Positions 10,897 to 24,561 of a DNA stretch of 64,000 nucleotides are shown piece by piece. The notes under the pieces were generated by a model. The model was given only the letters and a program-made list of their open reading frames with translations, did not search any database and was not told where the DNA came from. Position 1 is the first letter of the stretch. Each line of letters begins with the position of its first letter. Position numbers and translations under genes: made by a program. The stretch is from a virus: positions 11,023 to 75,022 of the IMG/VR virus record IMGVR_UViG_3300032236_000765, one strand, 5' to 3'.

Positions 10897-11244
10897 CTAT
10901 GCAGCGAGAGTGTTGCAGGCGCATTGGCCCCGCCGGATCATCATCTGAAGACCAGCTTGAGTCTGGGGCAGACCGCGCTCCTTCAGCCACTTCTTGATGT
11001 GCGGCAGAAGATAGCCCTTGGTCTCGGCGATGCGAAGCGGAGCCATTCCCGCATCCTGCATTGCAAAATATTCTTCGACGGTGAAGTTCTTGATCAGGAA
11101 AGTGATGAACGTAGCCTTACCGCCACCGCGCTTGGAAAAGTTCGCAACGAACTTGCGCTCTGCATGAGGGGTAGACCAGCCTTGCGGGGCATACGAGAGC
11201 CAACCGTTAGAGTCGATGAGAGTTTCTTTCGTGAACTTAGTCAT
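10897..11244 (-). CDS. Hypothetical early protein
   Basis: GGAG SD, own sigma70 promoter, GC-richer codons. Confidence 0.7.
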   Translation of the reverse strand: MTKFTKETLIDSNGWLSYAPQGWSTPHAERKFVANFSKRGGGKATFITFLIKNFTVEEYFAMQDAGMAPLRIAETKGYLLPHIKKWLKERGLPQTQAGLQMMIRRGQCACNTLAA

Positions 11245-11529: not shown

Positions 11530-11558
11530 AATATAGCGGAATGGGTAACTCATGTCAA
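11530..11558 (-). promoter_or_regulatory. Phage early promoter (repeated motif)
   Basis: TTGACATGAGTTACCCATTCCGCTATATT. Confidence 0.8.
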
Positions 11559-12571
11559 CCTTTTTGTACCAAAAAAAGCGGTCCGTCGATAAATTTATTT
11601 CTATCCTGATTCATCATTCCAGCTTGCATTTCTTTGATCATCTCAGGAGTCAGATGTCTAGCTCTCATCTGTGAATCATGAAAGAATATATGAACTTCTA
11701 CAAAAGCATCACCCTCTAACCGTTGGATAGCTATCATACGATGACGCCCTTCATGTCCTGTGACCCTAGCAGGTTGGATGAAGTCTCCGTCTTCCCACTG
11801 AGCAGGAATCTTAACAATCAAGAAAGGGGCGCCCAGCCCGCCACCATTTTGTAGATGGTCGATGATATCATTTATCGTTTTTTGATTAGGATGTTTAATT
11901 GGTGCAGCTAATTGGAAGAATGTCGAAGGACGCATCAGCACACGCAATCCTAGGTAGTCTACGTTTTCATTGTTTGGAGTCTGTCCCCATCCATTCGCGT
12001 TGTCTACCTTGTATTCATCTAGCTCATTTTCTCTAGATGTAACAGCGAGTTTGTTCTTTATTCCTTCATCAACTGGACTCTTGCTGATAGGAACTTTCTT
12101 ACGATTGGTGAGAAAATAGGTATTGAACCAAGCTGTGCTTTCAACATCCCATTTACTCATAAACGTATTATTCCGGCGTTCCATGCCCTCTGGATTATGA
12201 TGTATAGCATCATAATCTTTCTCTAACAATTGCCAGGGCATCTTAGTGAATAATTCTGCAGGATCTTTGATTTGGACACCATATTTTCTAGCAATCATCA
12301 TGGCATCACTGTCTGTGTTAATGACTAGTATTCGTGCACCTGGTCTGACATCCATCAATGTGCCTTCATCACTTACCCATTCAGGCATCTCACCATAACA
12401 CCAGTCTACCCAATCACTCGTATAACCATTCTTGACTTTTATAGCAGTGCTAGTCCATAACGCAGCATCAGGCTTCAGTGATGCTTCATTAGTCTTTACA
12501 GGACGTGGAACATATAACTGCGGACCTAAACTCACATTTTTGTCCTCAGCTACTAAATCAGATGCTCTCAT
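11555..12571 (-). CDS. Two-domain protein, C-terminal ParB/Srx-like domain; putative head protein
   Basis: VTGHEGRHRMIAI motif; leader MRASDLVAE. Confidence 0.6.
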   Translation of the reverse strand: MRASDLVAEDKNVSLGPQLYVPRPVKTNEASLKPDAALWTSTAIKVKNGYTSDWVDWCYGEMPEWVSDEGTLMDVRPGARILVINTDSDAMMIARKYGVQIKDPAELFTKMPWQLLEKDYDAIHHNPEGMERRNNTFMSKWDVESTAWFNTYFLTNRKKVPISKSPVDEGIKNKLAVTSRENELDEYKVDNANGWGQTPNNENVDYLGLRVLMRPSTFFQLAAPIKHPNQKTINDIIDHLQNGGGLGAPFLIVKIPAQWEDGDFIQPARVTGHEGRHRMIAIQRLEGDAFVEVHIFFHDSQMRARHLTPEMIKEMQAGMMNQDRNKFIDGPLFLVQKG

Positions 12572-13857
12572 TTTGTCACCCTATATGCAGCCCACTTGTC
12601 ACGACCTTTCCTCATGCCGATATGTCTATCTATATAAAAAGACATACCGTGGTCACTTTCTCGTTTTGACGGGAATTCATTCCCTACATTTATAGAAATA
12701 GCTTTTGGCAGATAGCTCAAATCATCACCGGAATCCATACCAAATTCCGGGGATAGCAATCCTTTTATAGTTTTAACAGTTGGACGGATAGCTTCATTCA
12801 TATCAATCCTAAATCTGCGAGCTTCATCATTCCAGTTTAAATAATCATCCTTATTTTCGACTGCTTTATCCCAATCAATATCACCATGTTCATCGGTGTA
12901 TTTCTCTTGCATCTGTTGATAGTAGTACTCATCATTTATTTCCCATTCGGATAATACTTCCCAAAGATATTCTTCAGCAAGGTCTGCGATCTGGTTAATA
13001 TAATTTTGCAATTCTTCATCAGGACACATGATAATCATGTCTTTAGTTTCAGGTTCATTTTGCAAAAAGAATTCATATAGTTCTGGAAATCTCTTAGTGA
13101 GCAGGACATATAGATTTATCTCTTCATCCTCTTCATTCATGAATTGTCCCGAAGGGAAATGTAATTGATACTTCTCACCTTCATGCCGTGGCTTCTTGGG
13201 AATGAGAATATACATCTTACCCTGATTGTTGTAGTAGTCGAAATAGTTTTTTCCTTGAGTAGCAGCAGTACACCAACGAGTACCCCTACCGTATCGACAA
13301 GCAGCAGCCTCATCTTCTGGTACGACAACTAATACGTTGCCATCTTCATAGACTTTTGAGGCTTTGCCTTTTTCTTCTTCTTTTTTCTTATCCCCACCTT
13401 CGATCTTATCTAGATCATATTGGTTGATCATAGTGTCTTCAAAGTCTTTATAAGTCTTGAATCGATTAATATCATTATGCTCAGACTTGATCATTCTGCG
13501 TCTTTTACCGATATCATATATTCCGAGAAGATTTCTACGATTCATATCTTCCATCTTAAGGCCGCCCTTGGCATATACTTTTGCTAACCAAGGAGTGTAC
13601 GCTTTGTTTGGAGTAGGGTCCTTTTCTTCAATTGCACTTAATATCTTATCAATCATCTCTGCTCGTTGTGCAGGTGTGATCACTGCATTTATCTGTTCAG
13701 GTGTTGCATTTGCTAGCAGTCGGAGCCTTGTCCAGATATTTGCCAATCCATATGCAGTGGCCCCTCTATCTTGAGCAAAAGCCGTTAATAAACGATTACC
13801 AACTTGATTGGCTGTGATCTGTCTATTATACTCAAGGAGAAATTCTCTGGCTCGCAT
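12568..13857 (-). CDS. Putative head-packaged protein with ACxYG...WCT domain
   Basis: Leader MRAREFLLE; AACRYGRGTRWCTAA...KYQLHF. Confidence 0.6.
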   Translation of the reverse strand: MRAREFLLEYNRQITANQVGNRLLTAFAQDRGATAYGLANIWTRLRLLANATPEQINAVITPAQRAEMIDKILSAIEEKDPTPNKAYTPWLAKVYAKGGLKMEDMNRRNLLGIYDIGKRRRMIKSEHNDINRFKTYKDFEDTMINQYDLDKIEGGDKKKEEEKGKASKVYEDGNVLVVVPEDEAAACRYGRGTRWCTAATQGKNYFDYYNNQGKMYILIPKKPRHEGEKYQLHFPSGQFMNEEDEEINLYVLLTKRFPELYEFFLQNEPETKDMIIMCPDEELQNYINQIADLAEEYLWEVLSEWEINDEYYYQQMQEKYTDEHGDIDWDKAVENKDDYLNWNDEARRFRIDMNEAIRPTVKTIKGLLSPEFGMDSGDDLSYLPKAISINVGNEFPSKRESDHGMSFYIDRHIGMRKGRDKWAAYRVTK

Positions 13858-13866
13858 GGCTAATAA

Positions 13867-14862
13867 TTAGCCTCTATCACGACCGAAAAGATGATTCATT
13901 TCTTCATCACTAGCAACATCTTCACTATGATATGCAGTAGGATAAAGTCTCTTGATTCGTGCTACTTCTTCTGGAATGTTCCAGCCGCCGCGGGAAATTC
14001 CCATATCAATAGAAGCATTTTTTAATTCTTCAGAACGGCTTTCAAGTTCAGATACAATATGTTTCATCAGTCCAGGAAATAACTTAGTGAATTGTTCTTC
14101 ACCTACGTTATAGTCCTGTGTTGCATTCTTTAACTGGCGGGTAGCTGAGTGCATCTGCCACTTGCCGTTTTTATTATTCATATTTTGTTTATCGATAATG
14201 CTAACGATAGGACCGTCTGATGAATAACGGTTGAACCAGTTCAACCCGCTACTACTTCCAGTACAGAATTGACCTTGATGTCCTTCTGCGTTATTGAATG
14301 TATAGCAAGAGCCATAGTTTAATGGAACAATGACATAATATCTATCATTGTCAATAAGCACGATCTGTTTTGCATTCTTCTTCATTGCTGCTAGTTTTTC
14401 AGCATCAGCAATCTTTCTCAATGCATCACGATATTTGTCTTTGCGTATAACTTTTTGTAATTTTTCGATTGAAGAAAATTTATTAAAGTCCTGATCATTA
14501 GGATCTAACAAACCACGAACACTAAGTGCTTTCCAAGAACCTAATGCATCTCCCCCTTCACCGTTGATTTCTTCATAATTATTGATATGATTGACATACA
14601 GTTTTGTTAACCAAGCATCAAACTTGCCGTCTCTTGATAAGTCACCGTAGTTAGTAAGAGCCAGTGTACGGTCGATCAATTTACTCCATAGCTTAACCAC
14701 ATCTTCATCACTTGGCTTAGGGCCTAGACTTGCTAGTGCTGGTGCCGGAAAGGTTGAATCATGTTTTACAGCCAAAGCCAGCATTTTAGTCATTCTTGGA
14801 TCTTTAAGAATCTTTTCTGCATGGTTTGCTTCTGTTAATCTAGTTTTTATTAAGCGTCTCAT
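13867..14862 (-). CDS. Paralog of preceding protein (SC...FCTG...KWQMH)
   Basis: Shared W-L-x-K-x-Y, DFNKF/DINRF, V-I/V-V-P...C motifs; leader ends LTE. Confidence 0.6.
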   Translation of the reverse strand: MRRLIKTRLTEANHAEKILKDPRMTKMLALAVKHDSTFPAPALASLGPKPSDEDVVKLWSKLIDRTLALTNYGDLSRDGKFDAWLTKLYVNHINNYEEINGEGGDALGSWKALSVRGLLDPNDQDFNKFSSIEKLQKVIRKDKYRDALRKIADAEKLAAMKKNAKQIVLIDNDRYYVIVPLNYGSCYTFNNAEGHQGQFCTGSSSGLNWFNRYSSDGPIVSIIDKQNMNNKNGKWQMHSATRQLKNATQDYNVGEEQFTKLFPGLMKHIVSELESRSEELKNASIDMGISRGGWNIPEEVARIKRLYPTAYHSEDVASDEEMNHLFGRDRG

Positions 14863-14873
14863 GATTGTCCTTC

Positions 14874-15866
14874 TTATAGGTGTAATAGTACGTGTTTTAA
14901 ATAGTTCATCAGTGTGACTAATTTATTTTGGTCACCGTTTGCAATATCAGCGACGACTTTTTTCATGCCCTCACTTCTATCAGGTGAGTTAGAACGATAG
15001 CCACTACCTAAAGTGAAATTGCCGGTATCATCTGGGTAGTAATGACTTGCGGTCATATATAGCGCAGGTCTTAATCTTGACTTTAACTCAGCAGGCACTG
15101 ATGCAGGATCATCGATGAGTCTTTCTCTGATATCACTCAATTTTTTTAATATCTGTAGCTTAATTTCTACTTTATTGTAAGCATCATTCTTTAGGGCTAT
15201 ACCACTAACACCTTTAACATCAGCGATTGCTTGATCGACGTATTTTAAAAATAATGGACGTAATTTATTATATATTGCTTCTAGATTCGTACTCATACTA
15301 GCAGTTGGGTCTAGCATAGTAGGATTATCAATCCTTCTAGCGCGTTCACGTTCATCACGCTTTTTCTCGACTTCACCTCTTGAACTTCTGCCATAGCCAC
15401 CGGTACCTACAGAAGACCAATACCCCATGACTTTTCCTAAGTCTTCTTTCATATCACCTACTAGTGCGTTGATACTACTTGAACGGAGTTTGCGAATTCC
15501 GTTACCGGTCGCAACCATTGCACGCCATTCAGAACCATCCCATTTTATTGCAGCGGTTCCTCTACTACCAGCAATCAACACATAGTTAGGAGAACGCTCT
15601 TTAATATCCTTCCATGTTATTTTAGTTTCAGGCTTCCATTGTACATTATCCGGAATAGAAAGTTCACTATGGACATGTTGAATGAGCAAATCTGCATATG
15701 GGCTATTACGAACAGTCGAACTGATTGATGAGTCCTCATCTAGAATCTCATGCAAAACGTGGGATATAGCCTTATGAAACATCTTACGTGCCGGATCATT
15801 GTTAGAACGTCTTGACGGTTGTAATGGTATGAATCTATTTTCTTTAAGTAGGTCTGATCTTCTCAT
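14874..15866 (-). CDS. Hypothetical putative head protein
   Basis: Start reassigned to MRRSDLLKE (15866), just after the dps stop. Confidence 0.6.
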   Translation of the reverse strand: MRRSDLLKENRFIPLQPSRRSNNDPARKMFHKAISHVLHEILDEDSSISSTVRNSPYADLLIQHVHSELSIPDNVQWKPETKITWKDIKERSPNYVLIAGSRGTAAIKWDGSEWRAMVATGNGIRKLRSSSINALVGDMKEDLGKVMGYWSSVGTGGYGRSSRGEVEKKRDERERARRIDNPTMLDPTASMSTNLEAIYNKLRPLFLKYVDQAIADVKGVSGIALKNDAYNKVEIKLQILKKLSDIRERLIDDPASVPAELKSRLRPALYMTASHYYPDDTGNFTLGSGYRSNSPDRSEGMKKVVADIANGDQNKLVTLMNYLKHVLLHL

Positions 15867-15868
15867 TA

Positions 15869-16312
15869 TTATGCTCTTGTTGTCTTTAGAATGCTTCTGA
15901 GCATCCAATTGTGTTTGCCGTGAGCATCAATACGCTCTGCAATAAAGTTAGCGATTCCCTGTTCATCTGCTTCTTCTGCGACATGAAAAGCCTGTTTCCA
16001 CATATGCAAAATCTTTAGATTATCATCGTATAGTTCTTGCATCATGAGTTCAGCACGAGGAACTTTAAGTTGATCTTCAACATGACTTAGTTCTGAGAGA
16101 CGGGCGAGACTGCCTGGAGTATATACATCAAGTTGACGAATTATCTCAGCAGTACGATCAATTGTATTTCCGTAAACTTCTTCATAAAGATTACCTAAAA
16201 ATTCATGGTATTGAGGGAAATCCGGGCCTTCGACATTCCAATGGAAATATTGCGTCTTAATTGAAAACGCATATACGGTGGCCAACATTGTCTTAAGAGT
16301 ATCTGCTAACAT
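15869..16312 (-). CDS. dps: Dps / ferritin-like DNA protection protein
   Basis: KTQYFHWNVEGPDFPQYHEFLGNLYEE...DRTAEIIR...HGKHNWML. Confidence 0.92.
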   Translation of the reverse strand: MLADTLKTMLATVYAFSIKTQYFHWNVEGPDFPQYHEFLGNLYEEVYGNTIDRTAEIIRQLDVYTPGSLARLSELSHVEDQLKVPRAELMMQELYDDNLKILHMWKQAFHVAEEADEQGIANFIAERIDAHGKHNWMLRSILKTTRA

Positions 16313-16329
16313 TTAAAATATCCTATGAA

Positions 16330-16698
16330 CTATTTATCGTTTTTACTATTATTTGGTTTCTTATTTTTATACAGATGTCTTAATATAACCGAATCAGTAT
16401 CTTCGTAAGTCATTGCAGTTATTCTACGAGGACCCTTGCGTTTGAACATACCGTACTCTTGTTCATAAGTAGTTGGTCCGCCGACCATAGAACCACCGCT
16501 ATTACCAGCAGAGCCACCTCCCTGGCCAGTACTAGCGGTTTCTACGATACCTTCTGCTTGCAACTCACGCATAGCTTGCACTAACGGATGCACAAAAGGT
16601 TCGGGTTCAGTGATTTCTTCCGCAATGGAGTCTGATGCTTCTAGCATCCTCATTTTCTCTATGAGTGTGCTAATTTCATCCACATACATTTTTGCCAC
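16330..16698 (-). CDS. Hypothetical modular protein
   Basis: In-operon ORF with LxE/IxE sites. Confidence 0.55.
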   Translation of the reverse strand: MAKMYVDEISTLIEKMRMLEASDSIAEEITEPEPFVHPLVQAMRELQAEGIVETASTGQGGGSAGNSGGSMVGGPTTYEQEYGMFKRKGPRRITAMTYEDTDSVILRHLYKNKKPNNSKNDK

Positions 16699-16729
16699 TT
16701 TTCCCTAATAAACCTTACTATCTCAAAAA

Positions 16730-19186
16730 TTATTTTTTCTTTTTGGTTACAAAGTCAGCAAGAGCCTTTGTGAATGTTGCGAGTGTCATACCGCCGGCGC
16801 CAACAAATGCACCTGCTGCTACCAACCCTTGAAAAAATTGAAACCATTCGTCAGGTCTCATATAAGGTATAAGCTGGGTCCAAGGAATTGATTCATCTAA
16901 CATTTCTTCATTAGTTGTACCAGCCATCTTTGGCTTGAACTTGCGATATGATTGACCTGCATTTCCACCTTGACCCATACCGCTTGCATAAGCAGTGTCT
17001 TCAAATGTTCTGCGATCTCTCCAACCACCTGGTTGAGTTCCTACCGGTCCTGAAGTGTCTGGCATCTCTCGCATGACACCTCTATTTGTGCGTGACATTG
17101 AACTGTTGTATGAACCTTTTGTGGGAATGCGTGAAGGTTTATAATTCATATTTTCAGCGACTTTTTTCGTTTTTAAACTATTTGCATACTTTAGTATTTC
17201 ATCTATTACACCGACTACTTTTTTTAATGGTACCTTTGACGCAAAAACTGTCTGTATGAATTTCATTACATTAGGATTTTTGCTTTTAACGGCTGCTTCC
17301 ATCACATACTGCTTCATTGAACTTCTAGATATAGAATATTCTTCATTCAAGCCTATTGCATTGCCTAATGTATTCTTTATAAATTTCAATAAGTTTATGA
17401 AGTTGTCTCCTTGACCCAAGGCTATGATTGCTGAAGCTGCAACAGCTCCCAATACTGGAGTTACTTTTTCTTTTATAAAGTTTTTAAGTTTTTCCCCTGT
17501 GCTAAAATCTGTCTTATCAGGATGAAACTCTCCGTATTCTCTCAATCTAGCTTCTTTCACTTTATTCTTTATTTGTCCACGACGCTGGACCCCTGAATTC
17601 ATAGTAGACTTCGTGGATTTGGGATTCTTACTTTCTCTATACATTGTGTTAGTCTCTTTCCTTCTAATTGTTTTTCTACTGTCAGATCGGGATTCAAACT
17701 GATCAGTTCCTGGTATAGGGTGAACGATTGGATGGCATCCCTGCCAATACTCATGATCAAGTGCAGGTGTCCATGCCATGAATTGAGCAGTGTCACCCTC
17801 TGTGCATTGCCTGCTTCTCCAGCCCATTTGACTTGATACTCTTTTGACTAATAATTGATAAAGTTTTCGTCTGCTTTCACCGCTACCTGTAAATGTAACC
17901 CAGGTAGTATTAGAATTTTTAACAAAGTTAACAACATGGTGCATCACTGTGGCCAATACTTGAGCAGCCGCAGGCCCTAGATCACCTGTTAGATCATATT
18001 CACTCTCATTATCATTTACCCAGCGACTAAAACTTATTATTAGACCATGATTTTTATGTTGTTTAATAAAGCTAGCCATACGTGTTGGAGAAATTATTTC
18101 GTCATAATAATATATGTTACGGTTATTACTATATAGAATTGCTAGTTCATAATCATGAACTACTTCTTTACCGGTGTTAGGATCAGTTACAGTTATTGCA
18201 AAATCTCCTTGTTGACCGTCTCTGAAACGGGTCCATTTGATCGGCAAAGGTTTGTCAAACAATTCGTTCAGTTGGTTTTCTTTTACATGCTTAGGCTTTT
18301 GGTGATGTTTTTTCATATTGATAGCGATTGCAGCTTGTTGTGCTGCATTTGCTGCTTCTTTTACACTCTCACTCTTAGTGCCCCAGTTCTTTGCACCCTT
18401 CTTACGGCATTGAACTAACGCACCACTAGCATATGCGCTTGGCCATACCTTGTAGCGACTTTTGACTTTGTAGTAGCAGGCATCTTGCTTCTCATTGATC
18501 ATCGATTCAGGATACATACTGCCACCACATTCTGGACATTTCTGTCTATCTTCATTTTTCTTTCGGCCAGCACAATGTGCTTTCTGACTGAAGCCTTTTG
18601 GGTGTGAGCAATCAATACTACGCTTGTATTTTTCACTCCATTTTTCTTCTAACTCTTGTCCTTCATTTTTTACACAGTTAGGAACAGTCTTGCCGAACAT
18701 CTTCTTGTTACCCTCTTTGTGATAACCCTTCCAGCAATTCTCATCCATCTGTTCTTCATTAGTCTTTTTCTTGGTAGCAACATTCTTTGCTGCACCGCGA
18801 CGATCAGGATTTGGGTCTTCTCTGCGCTTCTTACTAGCAGCATATTTGCGACCCTTCTTACCTAAGTTCTGTGCTTTCTTTTGCGGCAAGCATTTTGGTT
18901 TACCTTCACTGTCACTACCCCTTGCACAAGCACCACGAATCTTTCCGTCTGGGCCAAAACGAACCCACTTCTCTTTGAACCACTTGTGAAGATTTTCGTC
19001 TAGTTCGACCTCTTCATGTGTTTCAGTTCTGAGTTCGATTTCTTTTCTTGGAAATTTTTTCTTCATCTGTCTAAGAGCATCTTCTGCTTCTTTAGGATCG
19101 ACATATTTTGTTGCAGCTACACCGTCGATATACAGAACAAGTACCTGCTCAGATTCGTCAACAATGCCTTTCATGATACTTGACAT
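16730..19186 (-). CDS. Modular polyprotein-like putative internal head protein (818 aa)
   Basis: Series of short basic Cys-containing modules separated by LDE/MDE/LEE/INE/VKE/LNE. Confidence 0.65.
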   Translation of the reverse strand: MSSIMKGIVDESEQVLVLYIDGVAATKYVDPKEAEDALRQMKKKFPRKEIELRTETHEEVELDENLHKWFKEKWVRFGPDGKIRGACARGSDSEGKPKCLPQKKAQNLGKKGRKYAASKKRREDPNPDRRGAAKNVATKKKTNEEQMDENCWKGYHKEGNKKMFGKTVPNCVKNEGQELEEKWSEKYKRSIDCSHPKGFSQKAHCAGRKKNEDRQKCPECGGSMYPESMINEKQDACYYKVKSRYKVWPSAYASGALVQCRKKGAKNWGTKSESVKEAANAAQQAAIAINMKKHHQKPKHVKENQLNELFDKPLPIKWTRFRDGQQGDFAITVTDPNTGKEVVHDYELAILYSNNRNIYYYDEIISPTRMASFIKQHKNHGLIISFSRWVNDNESEYDLTGDLGPAAAQVLATVMHHVVNFVKNSNTTWVTFTGSGESRRKLYQLLVKRVSSQMGWRSRQCTEGDTAQFMAWTPALDHEYWQGCHPIVHPIPGTDQFESRSDSRKTIRRKETNTMYRESKNPKSTKSTMNSGVQRRGQIKNKVKEARLREYGEFHPDKTDFSTGEKLKNFIKEKVTPVLGAVAASAIIALGQGDNFINLLKFIKNTLGNAIGLNEEYSISRSSMKQYVMEAAVKSKNPNVMKFIQTVFASKVPLKKVVGVIDEILKYANSLKTKKVAENMNYKPSRIPTKGSYNSSMSRTNRGVMREMPDTSGPVGTQPGGWRDRRTFEDTAYASGMGQGGNAGQSYRKFKPKMAGTTNEEMLDESIPWTQLIPYMRPDEWFQFFQGLVAAGAFVGAGGMTLATFTKALADFVTKKKK

Positions 19187-20347
19187 TTATCTGTTCCTTA
19201 ATCTGCGGTAGTTCTTATTATATAATTGTGCTTCATTTAACATTTTATTCCAAAAACGTTTTAAGCTTTCAGCAGTGAATGATGGATAATCATCACCGTA
19301 CATTACTTTCGTGTCTCTAGCTATAAAAGTCTTTATTTGACGTAGAACCGCATCCTCATCACCGCGCATACGAATCAAAAGTTGTAGTGTTAAAATAGGA
19401 TCAAGAGGAACTGGGGCTTCGTTACGAATATAATAGTAAAGATTTGGAGCAAATTCTTTTATTTGTTGATAAGCATCATCATGCTCGGAAGTGATAAATC
19501 CACCGGTTTGGTTCACGTTTGTGTTAGTATCACTGATTCTATGAGAATGACTTTCACCTACACCGCCACCTGCGATTACACCTTCATGTGCATTATTATT
19601 TTCTTGTGCACTGATGAGATATTCAGTGACTCCGGTCATCATACCCTTGATCTGCCCGATCTTTTCTGAGACCCATTCAGGAAAATGATCACTGTTCTCT
19701 AATCTATTATGTAGCTCTTTGGCATTGCGAGCGATAGTTCTTAGGCTATTCTTTAGAGTCTCACCCTCGCGGTCTGATTTATCTGGGTCAAATGAATGGA
19801 AGCCAGTCTTTAATCTACGACCTTGTCCTGGTACAAGAATCAATTCGTCTTCTTCTAGACGAGCTTCATGTACTTCTTTTTTGATTTCACACTTACTATT
19901 AGGATGCTTATTCTGCATGATTGTTACTTGATCTTGTGCATCTTTTATATTCACGGACTTAGTTACTGGCTTACCATTAATATAGACAACATAAACTTGT
20001 TCGCTCTCTTTCAAGCGTTGAGCTTCATGTACTTCTTTTTTGATTTCATACTTACGGTCAGGATGCTCTTTCCTCATTATAGAAATCTGTTCTTGTGCAT
20101 CTTTTTCAGTCGTAGATTTAGTTGCTGGTTTACCATTAATATATATTACGTGAACCTCTTCGCTTTCTTTCAAGCTATTAACAAACGGCTTACTTGTCTT
20201 CTTACCGGTAAATAGATTACCGACTTTCTTACCACTGTACACACCTTTACCCACAGCAGAACGCTTCATTGGTCCTCCGTTCATAGGAGCTGCTACAGTA
20301 GCGACACTACCGGATGTTGTTGACTCACAGATTTCAGTAATTCTCAT
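19187..20347 (-). CDS. Modular putative internal head protein with tandem repeat
   Basis: Leader MRITEICE; duplicated 53-aa V-x-Y-I-N-G-K-P module. Confidence 0.65.
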   Translation of the reverse strand: MRITEICESTTSGSVATVAAPMNGGPMKRSAVGKGVYSGKKVGNLFTGKKTSKPFVNSLKESEEVHVIYINGKPATKSTTEKDAQEQISIMRKEHPDRKYEIKKEVHEAQRLKESEQVYVVYINGKPVTKSVNIKDAQDQVTIMQNKHPNSKCEIKKEVHEARLEEDELILVPGQGRRLKTGFHSFDPDKSDREGETLKNSLRTIARNAKELHNRLENSDHFPEWVSEKIGQIKGMMTGVTEYLISAQENNNAHEGVIAGGGVGESHSHRISDTNTNVNQTGGFITSEHDDAYQQIKEFAPNLYYYIRNEAPVPLDPILTLQLLIRMRGDEDAVLRQIKTFIARDTKVMYGDDYPSFTAESLKRFWNKMLNEAQLYNKNYRRLRNR

Positions 20348-20397
20348 AAATAATCATCCATTTATTTTATATAGAGTATTTATCTCAACAAATAAAA

Positions 20398-20421
20398 AGA
20401 GGTCCCATTTCTGGGACCTCT
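20398..20421 (-). terminator. Intrinsic terminator
   Basis: AGAGGTCCC/GGGACCTCT stem plus T-tract on minus strand. Confidence 0.7.
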
Positions 20422-20446
20422 GGATGTTTCAAAAAGAAACTTCCTT

Positions 20447-21352
20447 TTATTGAGCAGAACCTTCAGGTGGTTGATTTTCTGCTGCTGCCTTAGCTGCTTG
20501 AGCTTCAACATACATCGGACCAACAGTGCTGAGAAGATGCTCTTGATTCTCCATGCAGAACACATAAGAACCGGAGTGACGTAGAAGAACACGCTTATCG
20601 ATCCAAATCTTACCACCAAGGTCACGCCAGTTTTCACAGAACGTCCAGTCTTCTGAGTAATAACGATTCTGACGAACTGCTGTGTCGAAGTAAGTCTTCA
20701 AGTATTGATCGTACTTCGGATCAAGACCAATGTCGTTCTTGTACTGCTTGACTGCTGGATGAGCATTCATCTTTTCAAAGACATGCTTCTTCATGAGAAG
20801 GAAGCCGGTGCCTGCCTTCGAAACTTCTTGAAGACCGTCTGGACCTTCTTCAGCACCATCAAAGCCGTTGACAACCCACTTGATCGGCATCGTCTTCATC
20901 GGATACAAACCACCGATAACATCAACGTCTCTATTCAAGAGAACTAGCAAGTGCCAGGGTTCCCAACCGATATCAGCGTCAACGAAGAACAAGTGTGTTG
21001 CTTCAGGCATGTCAAGGAACTTAGCGGTGAGCGTATTTCTAGCTCTGCTGATTAGTGATTCATTCACCATTGTTTCAAGAGTCCAATCAATGCCCAACTG
21101 ACGAGCAGTGTTTGCCCACTTGATGAAACTCATAAATGTAGATTCAGTCAACATACCGCCGTAGCAAGGCATTGCGATATGAACCTTAGTAGTACGTAGA
21201 TAGTCTACGTTAACTTGAACTTGGTTCTGCTGCGGTTGTTGTTCTTGTGCTTCCTGTTCATTGATTTCTTGAACAGCCTCTTGCACTGCTTCGACTGGGA
21301 TAGTTGCTTCTTCAGTTGAAGCAGTAGTATTCTTTGATTTCTTAGTTGCCAT
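20447..21352 (-). CDS. GT-A fold glycosyltransferase-like protein
   Basis: HIAMPCYGG, ESLISRARN, FFVDADI (DxD), GTGFLL, SEDWTFC. Confidence 0.75.
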   Translation of the reverse strand: MATKKSKNTTASTEEATIPVEAVQEAVQEINEQEAQEQQPQQNQVQVNVDYLRTTKVHIAMPCYGGMLTESTFMSFIKWANTARQLGIDWTLETMVNESLISRARNTLTAKFLDMPEATHLFFVDADIGWEPWHLLVLLNRDVDVIGGLYPMKTMPIKWVVNGFDGAEEGPDGLQEVSKAGTGFLLMKKHVFEKMNAHPAVKQYKNDIGLDPKYDQYLKTYFDTAVRQNRYYSEDWTFCENWRDLGGKIWIDKRVLLRHSGSYVFCMENQEHLLSTVGPMYVEAQAAKAAAENQPPEGSAQ

Positions 21353-21414
21353 ACAGTCCTCTTTTTGTGTAAACTAACTAGTAGTAATATTTACACGGAA
21401 GAAGGGTAGTGGAA

Positions 21415-24400
21415 TTATTTTTCTTCTAAGTAATCTGTATTTTCGGATAATTTTTTAGTTACTTGTTTCTTTATCCATTTATCCGGAATCATATGATGCT
21501 TCTTAACAAAATCATCATGCAGTTTGTCACCAGTCAAGTGGTATTCTTTGCAGATCAATTGCATCATCTTATCGATCTTATCATAATTGAGCTTTATACC
21601 TCGATCTTTAGCTTTCAATAATGCTTTCTCTAGTTGTTCAACACTACCGGATTTTTCTTTACCAGTAACATGTGTTGGCTTCATCTTACCTTTTAGTTTA
21701 ACTTTCGCTTCACTTAGTAATCTGACAAACTTAGCTTTTTGCCTTAGAGTAGCTTCTCCCAGCAGAGGTTTAATACGATCAATGAACTCTTTGATTTCTT
21801 GTTGCTTCATACCTGCTGCGGCAGTATTCATCAATGTCTTGACCCAGTCGATACCTAATTTTTTAGTGTCAAATGCCTTTGACCATAGATTTAATTTATC
21901 ATGTTCACTGGCATTTGGATCCTTCAGAATATCACGGAGCATAGTGAAACTAATACCAGTACCACCTTTGTCTGCTTCACGTTCTGTTCTGACAGTCTCG
22001 AAGTCTACTTGATCTTGTGTACCGCCATACTTAGCAACAGCTTCCGGATCCTTCATTCTCTTTGAGAGAGAATCCATCCACTTCTTCATGCTTTCGTAGC
22101 GATCACTTCCTACAAGAAGAATGATCTTATTGTAAGGACTGTTTTCTGGAATAACAAGTTCCTTTTCGATCTTCTTCATTGGAGTTCCACCTGGATTCCA
22201 TATCTGTATATTATTGCTATAGTCAGGATATAGCTTACGAAGTGTCTTTAACTTCATATCAGGTGGAATAGGATCGTCTGGTCCAACTACAGGGCTAACA
22301 AAAATATAAGGGTCACCCTTTACACTATTTGCAAGAGCAATAGTTTGATTGATTAATTGTTGATGTCCTCTGTGACCAACAAAGCTACCGATAGTCACAA
22401 CAGCAGGTTTGGTACGATTGCTTGCTACTGTGCTGCTGGCTGTTTTCTTTGCAGCCATTTTATCTTTCATATCGCTGCTTGTTACTTTAACAAGCATACC
22501 GTTGGGTAGATTAATCACGAGACCTTCGATTATCTTACCTAACTGATCCTTGCCTTCTAGCCTTGGGCTATTGATAATAGCATCACTTAATTCTTTACGA
22601 GCGTGGGTTAAAATCTCTTTTGCTTTAGCCTTTTGTGCAGACTCACCGCGTGACTTCACAGCAGCTAGTAATGCATCAGCATTATTAACGATAGGATCTA
22701 CAATAGAACTCACATCTAGATCACGTTGCTTCAATTGATTATTAACAATCTTGATTTCTTTGGTGCTATCTCTTAACAATTCATATTTGATCTTAGCTGC
22801 GTCGGGTCTTGGTTCACCAGTGCTATAAGTTTTCACACTGAATGGAACCAAAGTCATGATCGTACCTAGCTTCTTTTGATCATATGGAATATTAACAAAT
22901 ACGATACCGTTATCAGATCGTTTACCCATAGGCATGAATAACATTTCTGCTTGTACGATAGTATCATTCGGTAATCGCTTGATGAAGTCAGAAGTCACGA
23001 TAGTCTTCAAGGCTTCGTCATATAATTTTGTGAAAGAAAGGCGCTCGGGGTCTTGCCCCATGCTACGGCCATATTTTTCAAAGTCGCCGTAATTCTCAGC
23101 ATACTTAGGATCAGTTACCTTTGAAGTCATGAAGAATGGCTTGCCTTGTTCATCCTTACCGAAACGAACGCCTGCACCGTCTACCTTGAGATTGATAGGA
23201 GCACCATCAAGTTTACCGCCCATACCTGCAATCTCTTGGCACATACGAATGAAGTCAGCATCCTTCATCTCAACACTGCTGCCTGGACTATAGATATGCG
23301 GAATTCCCTTGCGTTTATAATCAGGTGCAGCTTCGTCAAGTGCTCTCTTTGCCATATTCTTGACGATCTCATTAGTGTTTTCACTATCATCTGTCGATGT
23401 CATCTTGTATCCAGCATAATAATCCTTCATCATCTGATCAAGATTACTAGGCTTAGGCATCTTTAGCATATTAAACATATGATTGATAGCTGTAGTTTTT
23501 TCTGCTCGGTCTTTACCGGGGTTATTCTTATACATTCCCTGAGCACCTGGACCAACTACTTTCAACAAGAATGCATGTACAACGTGCTGTTTTTCTTCAG
23601 GTGAAAGTAGATGGTTCATTACATCAAGCAAGCCGGAGAATGACCAGAATTTATTTGATATCTCTCGTGCTTGCTTTGGGTCTAATCTCTTACCGAGAAT
23701 AGTTTGAAAAATCTTACCGATATCTTGAATATAACCCGAGGTCGGTGCTGCTCGCATGACTGGTTTACCATCTTTATATTCTGGTTTTCCAGTCATTCCA
23801 TCCATAACAGGTTCATACTTTGCTCTTAATCCACCGCCTTCTTTAGACGATACTGCAAAGCTATACATATTGTCTACTGTGAGTACATCTTCTTCTTTTC
23901 GTGCTTTACCACGACCGACCAACTTACGCAAGTAAAATTCTTGACGAGTCAAAGAGGTAAATGCTTGAATCAATAGTTTATGGAATACACCTTTGACTCC
24001 TGATTGCAAATCATCCCAAGATGAGCTATGGCTGAATCTTGCCCAATCAGTTGGTTTATTATTTACGAATTCTACAAACTCAAAGTCAATCTGAACTTTT
24101 ATAGGAGGATCCTGTAGTTCCCACAAAGAACTGAACTGTTCATTGCCGCGTTGAAATCCGCGAAGAATTGAAGGGCCGATCTGCTTATCTTCATTCTCGG
24201 TTAGGAATTCTCTTAATTCTAATTCTAATTCTTTGTCTACCATCGTATCCATATCGCCGACGGTTGGCTTCTTGGCTACGAATGTTTCGTCAGGAATACC
24301 CTTGACATTGAAGAAGTGCAAACTAGAACCACTCAGGAATTCTCCGCTACTTAATAATTCAGGACTCCATAATGGTTTTCTAAATTTTCTAGCAAATGCA

Positions 24401-24561
24401 GCATCAATGGACATGAGCAGGTTATTGAGAATAGGTACGATATATTTTCTATTCGTTACCTTAAGATCGAGGTGTTGCGCCTCATGGCCGCGAATAGCGA
24501 GATTGCCACCTTCTAGCAAACGACGTTTACGATTTTCTGCAATACCCCTTGAAGTCTTCAT
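21415..24561 (-). CDS. Multidomain enzyme: Pol-beta-like nucleotidyltransferase + ligase-like adenylation domain + HxGH nucleotidylyltransferase
   Basis: GSS...GDMD...QID; KVDG...AEML...EGLV...LVKV; GSFVGHRGH...VGSDR. Confidence 0.65.
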   Translation of the reverse strand: MKTSRGIAENRKRRLLEGGNLAIRGHEAQHLDLKVTNRKYIVPILNNLLMSIDAAFARKFRKPLWSPELLSSGEFLSGSSLHFFNVKGIPDETFVAKKPTVGDMDTMVDKELELELREFLTENEDKQIGPSILRGFQRGNEQFSSLWELQDPPIKVQIDFEFVEFVNNKPTDWARFSHSSSWDDLQSGVKGVFHKLLIQAFTSLTRQEFYLRKLVGRGKARKEEDVLTVDNMYSFAVSSKEGGGLRAKYEPVMDGMTGKPEYKDGKPVMRAAPTSGYIQDIGKIFQTILGKRLDPKQAREISNKFWSFSGLLDVMNHLLSPEEKQHVVHAFLLKVVGPGAQGMYKNNPGKDRAEKTTAINHMFNMLKMPKPSNLDQMMKDYYAGYKMTSTDDSENTNEIVKNMAKRALDEAAPDYKRKGIPHIYSPGSSVEMKDADFIRMCQEIAGMGGKLDGAPINLKVDGAGVRFGKDEQGKPFFMTSKVTDPKYAENYGDFEKYGRSMGQDPERLSFTKLYDEALKTIVTSDFIKRLPNDTIVQAEMLFMPMGKRSDNGIVFVNIPYDQKKLGTIMTLVPFSVKTYSTGEPRPDAAKIKYELLRDSTKEIKIVNNQLKQRDLDVSSIVDPIVNNADALLAAVKSRGESAQKAKAKEILTHARKELSDAIINSPRLEGKDQLGKIIEGLVINLPNGMLVKVTSSDMKDKMAAKKTASSTVASNRTKPAVVTIGSFVGHRGHQQLINQTIALANSVKGDPYIFVSPVVGPDDPIPPDMKLKTLRKLYPDYSNNIQIWNPGGTPMKKIEKELVIPENSPYNKIILLVGSDRYESMKKWMDSLSKRMKDPEAVAKYGGTQDQVDFETVRTEREADKGGTGISFTMLRDILKDPNASEHDKLNLWSKAFDTKKLGIDWVKTLMNTAAAGMKQQEIKEFIDRIKPLLGEATLRQKAKFVRLLSEAKVKLKGKMKPTHVTGKEKSGSVEQLEKALLKAKDRGIKLNYDKIDKMMQLICKEYHLTGDKLHDDFVKKHHMIPDKWIKKQVTKKLSENTDYLEEK

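Follow-up and report, generated by a model that had tools for sequence, protein, structure and literature searches.

A reshuffled array of small modules with protease-type junctions in a probable head-cargo protein of T4-related jumbo phages

Main

We analysed a 64,000-nucleotide stretch of viral DNA (the window; positions 11,023 to 75,022 of IMG/VR record IMGVR_UViG_3300032236_000765) and focus here on one open reading frame (ORF) at 16730-19186 on the minus strand, which encodes a protein of 818 amino acids (aa). An earlier note on this DNA had described the product, estimated at about 92 kDa, as a polyprotein of small basic, Cys-paired peptides separated by putative protease sites. We find that the protein is a chain of modules that occur in different orders in its homologues and follow a junction motif of hydrophobic-x-Glu (phi-x-E), that relatives encode a protease of the T4 head-protease family, and that one homologue is located in the virion; modularity, shuffling and the protease-type junctions are all established. 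The best explanation is a capsid-internal cargo protein of a T4-related jumbo myovirus of approximately 340 kb. Packaging as tagged head cargo, for which the support is indirect, is likely on its own, and we give slightly better than even chances to the whole chain of events, including cleavage at most junctions.

The ORF is a single uninterrupted frame of 818 codons (the coordinates include the stop codon), with a computed mass of 92.7 kDa, in line with the earlier estimate, and a computed pI of 9.6. The gene is real and conserved, given that an independent gene call (P0002) yields an identical product and that a copy 84% identical over aa 1-761 lies on three other viral contigs. All six previously listed sites were found, namely LDE64/NLHKWF, MDE149/NCWKGY, LEE181/KWSEKY, INE232/KQDACYY, VKE277/AANAAQQ and LNE308/LFDKP (the slash marks the predicted cut). 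From the N terminus, we divide the protein into a leader, modules M0 to M6, a cargo domain of the DUF6934 family, a basic and poorly conserved region, a conserved region (R8) and a C-terminal piece.

Results

Modules are shuffled in a very large family

Hidden Markov models (HMMs) were built for each piece and used to annotate 241 metagenome homologues, which display 69 distinct module orders, such as M1-M4-M5-M2-M2, M2-M4-M5-M1-M3 and M3-M2-M5-M1. Homologues also contain duplicated modules, in some cases the modules are fused to domains such as GNAT, cytidylyltransferase, DUF6321 and pterin dehydratase, and BLASTP maps show matching pieces in differing orders. A search for shuffled order in other phages, which the earlier note had proposed as a test of its polyprotein reading, thus supports that reading. 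The opposite outcome, a single multi-domain fold with fixed order, is rejected on the basis of the shuffling together with an AlphaFold2 model of aa 1-310 (69 sequences), for which the predicted template modelling score (pTM) is 0.32. In this model the small folds are confident, and the predicted local distance difference test (pLDDT) drops to less than 50 at aa 62-65 and at aa 136-146, both of them module junctions. A Foldseek search with this model found nothing at E <= 0.001, which is what a beads-on-a-string arrangement would lead one to expect.

Among the modules, only M4 and M5 behave as one unit: M5 follows M4 within 8 residues in 215 of 216 M4 copies, and M5 occurs without M4 in 24 of 240 cases. 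The INE that had been listed as a module separator is present but lies inside this nearly fixed unit, which corrects that detail of the polyprotein reading. The shuffled independent units, the phi-x-E junctions, the protease in relatives and the virion homologue all speak for the reading.

A database search returned more than 2700 longer proteins and, among 8000 short candidates that were scored, 7987 shorter ones, all as partial matches. With aa 63-274 as query, tblastn matched 364 phage records, for the most part cultured cyanomyoviruses that infect Synechococcus and Prochlorococcus. At the nucleotide level, megablast of positions 14000-24000 against cultured phages gave no match. A design found in thousands of proteins cannot be called rare, and the earlier description of it as unusual for phages has to be dropped. 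The closest relative, P0003 (loci L006, L007 and L023), is 84% identical over aa 5-300, the N-terminal array, and has a different insert of approximately 470 aa, without a Pfam match, in place of the DUF6934 domain. Such a replacement amounts to cargo swapping among close relatives.

Junctions follow a common grammar

Counted over distinct 11-residue contexts in the 241 homologues, phi-x-E stands directly before M1 in 121 of 129 (94%), before M2 in 110 of 110 (100%), before M3 in 75 of 76 (99%) and before M5 in 80 of 82 (98%). Before M6 the motif is found in 23 of 31 contexts (74%), with Glu at the Glu-Ala boundary in all 31. The pattern exceeds chance: the background frequency of phi-x-E is 2.8% per position in the same proteins and 0.6% within module cores (4.6-fold depleted). 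In addition, aa 309-542 (234 aa, holding the globular domain) contain no phi-x-E where approximately 6.5 would be expected (P ~0.0014).

The Glu at the predicted cut (P1) is present in 426 of 428 contexts and is never replaced by Asp, although Asp dominates the preceding P2 position. The remaining positions vary, with L/I/V/M at P3 and D/E/N/S/T/A/K at P2. In T4, the head protease gp21 recognizes L/I-x-E, and Asp at the Glu position blocks processing (PMC9026906). Modules M1, M2, M3 and M5 each end with a basic run and N/S-E (KKKTNE, CVKNE, GRKKNE and WGxKSE), and a typical junction reads ...KKxNE, then two to five variable acidic residues, then phi-x-E and the next module. The end of R8 and the start of the C-terminal piece use the same grammar (TNEEMLDE765/S). 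Proteins whose first unit is a module or a DUF6934 domain open with a short leader that itself ends in phi-x-E, as in MLTLELFE/KWS, MRLHEFLSE/AWT, MKANEFVTE/NLRNWF and MKLTE/IFDKP.

A portable tag and a cluster of leaders

T4 internal proteins carry a 10-residue capsid-targeting sequence that gp21 cuts off after L/I-x-E (PMC9026906, PMC3012670). The leader of the ORF, MSSIMKGIVDE (aa 1-11, 19154-19186, minus strand), resembles it in being approximately ten residues long and in ending V-D-E, with V at P3 and E at P1; leaders of homologues end in IVDE, LMRE, FLSE or QLDE. The S-S-I-M-K-G tag also heads unrelated proteins, and the ORF has one copy, at its N terminus. Across the family the consensus S-[SAN]-I-[LMF]-x-G-[IL] was found 70 times at the N terminus, 142 times internally and 96 times at the C terminus. 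Among 173 distinct contexts, the tag is preceded by Glu in 127 and by the start Met in 41, while tag position 10 is occupied by Glu in 99. Removal of Met or a Glu-specific cut would expose an identical N-terminal Ser, and exposure of this common Ser is the simplest reading of the equivalence of Met and Glu.

Short leaders ending in phi-x-E occur on eight consecutive minus-strand ORFs at 11555-24561: MRASDLVAE, MRAREFLLE, MRRLIKTRLTE, MRRSDLLKE, MYVDE, MSSIMKGIVDE, MRITEICE and MKTSRGIAE. They resemble the capsid-targeting sequence of T4 internal proteins, and the region looks like a head-cargo gene cluster.

Head protease and virion evidence in relatives

The 75-kb viral record from which the window comes is estimated to be 22% complete, which implies a genome of approximately 340 kb. 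Its genes include those for a tail sheath of 1220 aa, a tube protein, a clamp loader and a Clp-type ATPase. Sheath proteins 65-74% identical to this one over the full length occur in three near-complete metagenomic phage genomes (333-352 kb), which also carry homologues of the ORF. All three encode a T4 gp21-type Peptidase_S77 (93-98 bits, above the cut-off) and a Gp23-type major capsid protein (E ~1e-98), and in all 5 of the 5 large records with homologues a Peptidase_S77 exceeds the Pfam cut-off. Neither gene was found in the record of the window or in five fragmentary close relatives, a negative that carries no information because these records are only 14-31% complete. Since the head genes are absent from the fragment under study, its protease is inferred from these relatives. 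In one of the near-complete genomes (G001) the capsid protein reads ...KKQLLAE/SSAGTTTAG... just before its conserved core, and a neighbouring scaffold-like protein is rich in L-x-E.

Evidence for a virion location comes from cyanophages. M1 is homologous to P-SSM2 gp114 and to S-CREM2 ORF160, the latter being homologous to aa 65-272 and encoded near a cytidylyltransferase. The virion proteome of S-CREM2 contains ORF160 with 7 unique peptides and 13.1% coverage, identified at the protein level, together with ORF154 (the cytidylyltransferase), ORF155 and ORF156 (PMC10665884). The homologue in S-B68 carries a structural-protein annotation, and the gene for P-SSM2 gp114 lies between gp3 (tail sheath stabiliser) and the terminase gp16.

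The tail-sheath homologue of the 352-kb relative (G003:C1:154203-157799) contains one in-frame TAG, for which sequencing error, splitting of the gene or recoding may be responsible.

Anatomy of the modules

All coordinates below are on the minus strand, and piece sizes assume cuts at the end of the leader (11 aa), at the six listed sites and at E765. M0 (aa 12-64, 18995-19153; predicted piece of 53 aa) is an acidic, small beta-beta-alpha-beta domain with LDE at its end; it is modelled at a pLDDT of 87-98, its location differs among homologues and two more copies lie in the upstream ORF. M1 with its linker EQMDE (aa 65-149, 18740-18994) has the pattern NLHKWFKEKW...C-x11-C...KKKTNE and gives a predicted piece of 85 aa with a pI of 10.2, 25 K/R and 2 Cys. 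M1 has 35 invariant columns among 69 diverse sequences, and its two Cys are 100% conserved. M2 with its linker GQELEE (aa 150-181, 18644-18739; 32 aa, 2 Cys) reads CWKGY...PNCVKNE and is predicted to form a beta-hairpin (pLDDT ~90); it is frequently duplicated at the C termini of homologues. M3 (aa 182-213, 18548-18643; KWSEKYKRSIDC-x-H...HC-AGRKKNE) has one His and both Cys invariant and sits N-terminally, centrally or C-terminally in homologues. It is followed by M4 (aa 214-232, 18491-18547), a CPxCGG knuckle with INE at its end, and M3 and M4 together form a predicted piece of 51 aa with 4 Cys.

M5 (aa 233-277, 18356-18490; KQDACYYKVKSRYKVWPSAYASGALVQCRKKG...) gives a predicted piece of 45 aa with 2 Cys, both invariant, and a pI of 9.8. 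It is DUF5872-like: its score against the Pfam model (PF19197) is 17.9 bits, below the cut-off of 27.5, while the relative P0064 reaches 29.7 bits across the equivalent module. M6 (aa 278-308, 18263-18355; predicted piece of 31 aa without Cys) is a helix, AANAAQQAAIAINMKK, modelled at a pLDDT of 76-78, with VKENQLNE at its end and a location that differs among homologues. No Pfam model matches M0, M1, M2, M3 or M6. The small modules are K/R-rich, and their Cys pairs are 97-100% invariant in homologues, so the earlier description of small basic modules with paired Cys stands. Searches of PDB sequences with the whole protein and with a module profile returned nothing at E <= 0.1, and PADLOC gave no match for the ORF.

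The piece that starts with the globular domain is predicted at 457 aa. Behind the DUF6934 domain lies the basic, poorly conserved region (aa 517-681, 17144-17638), in which phi-x-E occurs seven times and aa 575-593 (17408-17464) form a hydrophobic segment. The Gly/Pro-rich region R8 (aa 682-765, 16892-17143) is conserved, ends in TNEEMLDE and is present in most homologues, often adjoining M2. The C-terminal piece (aa 766-818, 16733-16891), a predicted hydrophobic tail of 53 aa, has a glycine-zipper-like hydrophobic segment at aa 784-806 and ends in KKKK. The hydrophobic segments seen earlier are thus two, both Gly-rich. For aa 517-681 and aa 766-818, HMM matches were found only in the ORF product itself and in P0002.

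A proposed cargo domain with a predicted GNAT-like fold

The 'globular domain' of the earlier note is indeed a domain and can now be described as a DUF6934 cargo domain (aa 309-516, 17639-18262, minus strand) with a GNAT-like predicted fold, structured to approximately aa 480. Residues 407-453 pass the DUF6934 model (PF22028) with 34.7 bits against a cut-off of 27 bits, and with 36.9 bits for the domain alone. On the whole protein, Pfam reports only DUF6934 and a weak DUF5872, with no GNAT match. An exhaustive profile-free search found only 44 representatives of the domain, including stand-alone forms of 137-175 aa and proteins with three or four tandem copies. The stand-alone homologues start M-x-L-x-E/(I/L)FDKP.

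The AlphaFold2 model of the domain has a pLDDT of 79.9 and a pTM of 0.76. In a Foldseek-independent scan of the PDB, the best 50 matches all have the GNAT fold, with Z scores of 6.2-7.6 (below 8 and not decisive alone), root-mean-square deviations of 3.1-4.7 Å over 97-144 aligned residues and phage Mu Mom as the best match; Foldseek E-values for the model are weak (2e-3 or worse). Two segments are conserved in the family, T-G-x-x-G...helix and S-R-x-K-L-Y, which we take to sit at the positions of GNAT motifs A and B, and canonical GNAT domains occur as fusions in relatives of the module array. We conclude with moderate confidence that the domain is probably a divergent acyltransferase.

Discussion

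Proposed route and points that weigh against it

Taking as models T4 and those head proteins of phiKZ and SPN3US that undergo multiple cleavages, we propose the following route for targeting, cutting and ejection. The MSSIMKGIVDE tag, acting like a T4 capsid-targeting sequence, would bring the precursor into the prohead core, where a gp21-type prohead protease would then cut after the Glu of phi-x-E at module starts. The predicted products are the acidic M0; four to five basic, Cys-stapled mini-proteins of 3-10 kDa (M1, M2, M3/M4 and M5); the short M6 helix; the DUF6934/GNAT-like probable acyltransferase with its hydrophobic region; and the glycine-zipper tail. These would remain with the packaged DNA and enter the host along with it. 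The strong conservation of M1 across phages of different hosts favours a DNA-associated, counter-ion-like and host-independent role for the basic modules over one in fast-evolving anti-defence, and the swappable enzymatic domain may be a host-directed effector.

Several observations weigh against this route. No cleavage product has been observed for the ORF protein or any homologue, and the contig of the window, approximately 22% of the genome, contains no Peptidase_S77 or Gp23 gene. The AlphaFold2 model is poor for M5, where confidence is low. Not every phi-x-E can be a cut site, given that M1 itself contains an invariant one, F-K-E at aa 70-72. At the INE within the M4-M5 unit, the four invariant Cys of the two modules could bind one metal. 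Cyanophage homologues lack phi-x-E before M1 and keep it before M2 and M5. The Glu before internal tags follows K/T/P-x and not a hydrophobic residue, so cutting there needs a looser specificity. Lastly, M1, M2 and M3 all start 'LDE-x-W/x-W' and each has a Cys pair; they may be of common ancestry, in which case part of the motif conservation could be inherited.

Alternative explanations

The strongest alternative is an intact multi-domain virion protein that loses at most its leader. In this view phi-x-E belongs to a repeated unit of common origin and serves structure or docking to the scaffold. In its favour are the common start and Cys pair of M1, M2 and M3, which suggest shared descent, the invariant FKE within M1, the INE between the fixed neighbours M4 and M5, and the finding that many SPN3US head proteins are never cleaved (PMC10052503). 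However, phi-x-E is found as well before M5, M6, DUF6934 and the C-terminal pieces, which are unrelated, and at the ends of the leaders, P1 is never Asp in spite of the many Asp at P2, the motif is depleted in module cores and absent from aa 309-542, and internal tags are flanked by Glu. We regard an intact protein as the less likely reading.

Far less probable is that the junctions (KKxNE, short acidic linker, LDE) function chiefly at the DNA level, as linkers for recombination and module shuffling, without a proteolytic role. Shuffling breakpoints are located in the linkers, and one pair of junctions in the ORF, the R8 end and the M1/M2 junction, matches at 19 of 23 bases (family D5). Against this, no other junction repeat of more than ~80% identity or more than 25 nt was found within the ORF, leaders on stand-alone genes are left unexplained, and P2 and P3 vary freely while P1 stays Glu, which places the constraint at the amino-acid and not the nucleotide level.

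An equally remote alternative is an unpackaged, cytoplasmic nucleic-acid-binding or regulatory multi-domain protein made during infection: the evidence for packaging in this phage is indirect, and a scan for the T4 late-promoter motif TATAAATA gave 9 sites against 5 expected, none near the gene, but one homologue was detected in a virion proteome and a second has a structural annotation, the gene stands within eight leader-bearing genes adjoining a cytidylyltransferase fusion whose cyanophage counterpart enzyme is a virion protein, and the P-SSM2 homologue is placed between structural and packaging genes.

Comparison with known systems

The principle of a tag combined with a Glu-specific head protease is already known from T4 internal proteins, and many effectors per polypeptide are known from polyvalent proteins. 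Like T4 IPI, IPII, IPIII and Alt, the proteins described here have a short N-terminal leader ending in phi-x-E, small basic products (predicted for the ORF) and diverse cargo behind a conserved tag, and relatives of the ORF encode both Peptidase_S77 and a Gp23-type capsid protein. T4 internal proteins, however, are separate genes with one N-terminal tag each, whereas up to approximately ten units are chained in the ORF family and reshuffled among phages. The family further differs in its internal and C-terminal Glu-flanked tags and its invariant Cys pairs, and the likeness drawn here is one of design.

Ejection or inner-body proteins of phiKZ, 201phi2-1 and SPN3US are cut at S/A/G-x-E by a gp21-related protease (PMC9026906, PMC10052503). 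These are likewise giant myoviruses that pack many proteins with their DNA, with multiple Glu-specific cuts per precursor at redundant motifs (for the ORF, the cuts are predicted). There the precursors have long propeptides that are destroyed, leaving a single mature C-terminal piece, whereas each piece of the ORF product looks conserved and folded; P3 is hydrophobic in the ORF family, as in T4, and Ser or Ala in phiKZ-type sites.

Polyvalent proteins (Iyer et al. 2017) carry many effector domains on one polypeptide that is delivered with the DNA, and proteolytic release has been proposed for them (PMC5512222). The ORF family shares with them GNAT and other enzymatic domains, and its at least nine units fall within the range of 2-15 domains. 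Unlike polyvalent proteins, the ORF has no MuF, ArdC-N or zincin-like MPTase domain and no peptidase of its own by Pfam, its modules are much smaller, and the release proposed here is by the head protease. Cyanophages have 0 mentions in the polyvalent-protein paper (PMC5512222).

Pfam lists DUF6934, DUF5872, DUF6321 and DUF5661 as viral domains of unknown function, and relatives of the ORF carry DUF6321, DUF5872 and GNAT; the Pfam entries describe no function, tag, junction motif or shuffling. Searches of the literature on DUF5872, on cyanophage capsid-targeting sequences or internal head proteins and on jumbo-phage polyproteins turned up no account of shuffled mini-modules, the junction grammar or internal or C-terminal tags.

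We advance a broader proposal more tentatively, at somewhat short of an even chance: that abundant aquatic T4-related phages (cyanomyoviruses and jumbo phages of 330-350 kb) use plug-and-play polyproteins, in which a portable, Glu-flanked tag of 10 residues and head-protease junctions allow any combination of Cys-stapled basic mini-proteins and enzymes to be chained, packed, cut and injected. If so, dsDNA phages would have a true polyprotein strategy, and the mini-proteins would be a new class of DNA-bound capsid contents. Should the junctions prove to be cut, a sequence rule (tag plus phi-x-E) could predict capsid cargo from metagenomes, and a sizeable, conserved repertoire of small proteins, DNA-associated or host-directed, would be expected to reach the host as infection begins. 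In that case, thousands of unannotated 'hypothetical' proteins, including those of cultured cyanophages infecting Prochlorococcus and Synechococcus, would become readable as precursors of packaged mini-proteins and enzymes, and the internal-protein paradigm of T4 would extend from single tagged genes to shuffled polyproteins.

Neighbouring genes

The upstream ORF at 19187-20347 (minus strand, 386 aa) directly abuts the 818-aa ORF. Its two M0 copies are in tandem (a 156-nt direct repeat, 79% identical), and its N terminus, MRITEICE/STTSGSVATVAAPMNGG, is similar to the stretch that follows the predicted LAE/ cut in the G001 Gp23-type capsid protein. Downstream, a 122-aa ORF (16330-16698, minus strand) contains a Gly-rich stretch (GQGGGSAGNSGGSMVGGPTTYEQEY...FKRKGP) that resembles R8 by eye. 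A ferritin/Dps-like ORF (15869-16312, minus strand; Pfam PF00210, 1.6e-19) lies amid the leader-bearing genes but has no such leader. The 1048-aa ORF at 21415-24561 (minus strand) has a cytidylyltransferase-like segment (phrog_3041, aa 703-888), and in the relative P0042 a cytidylyltransferase is fused to a module array.

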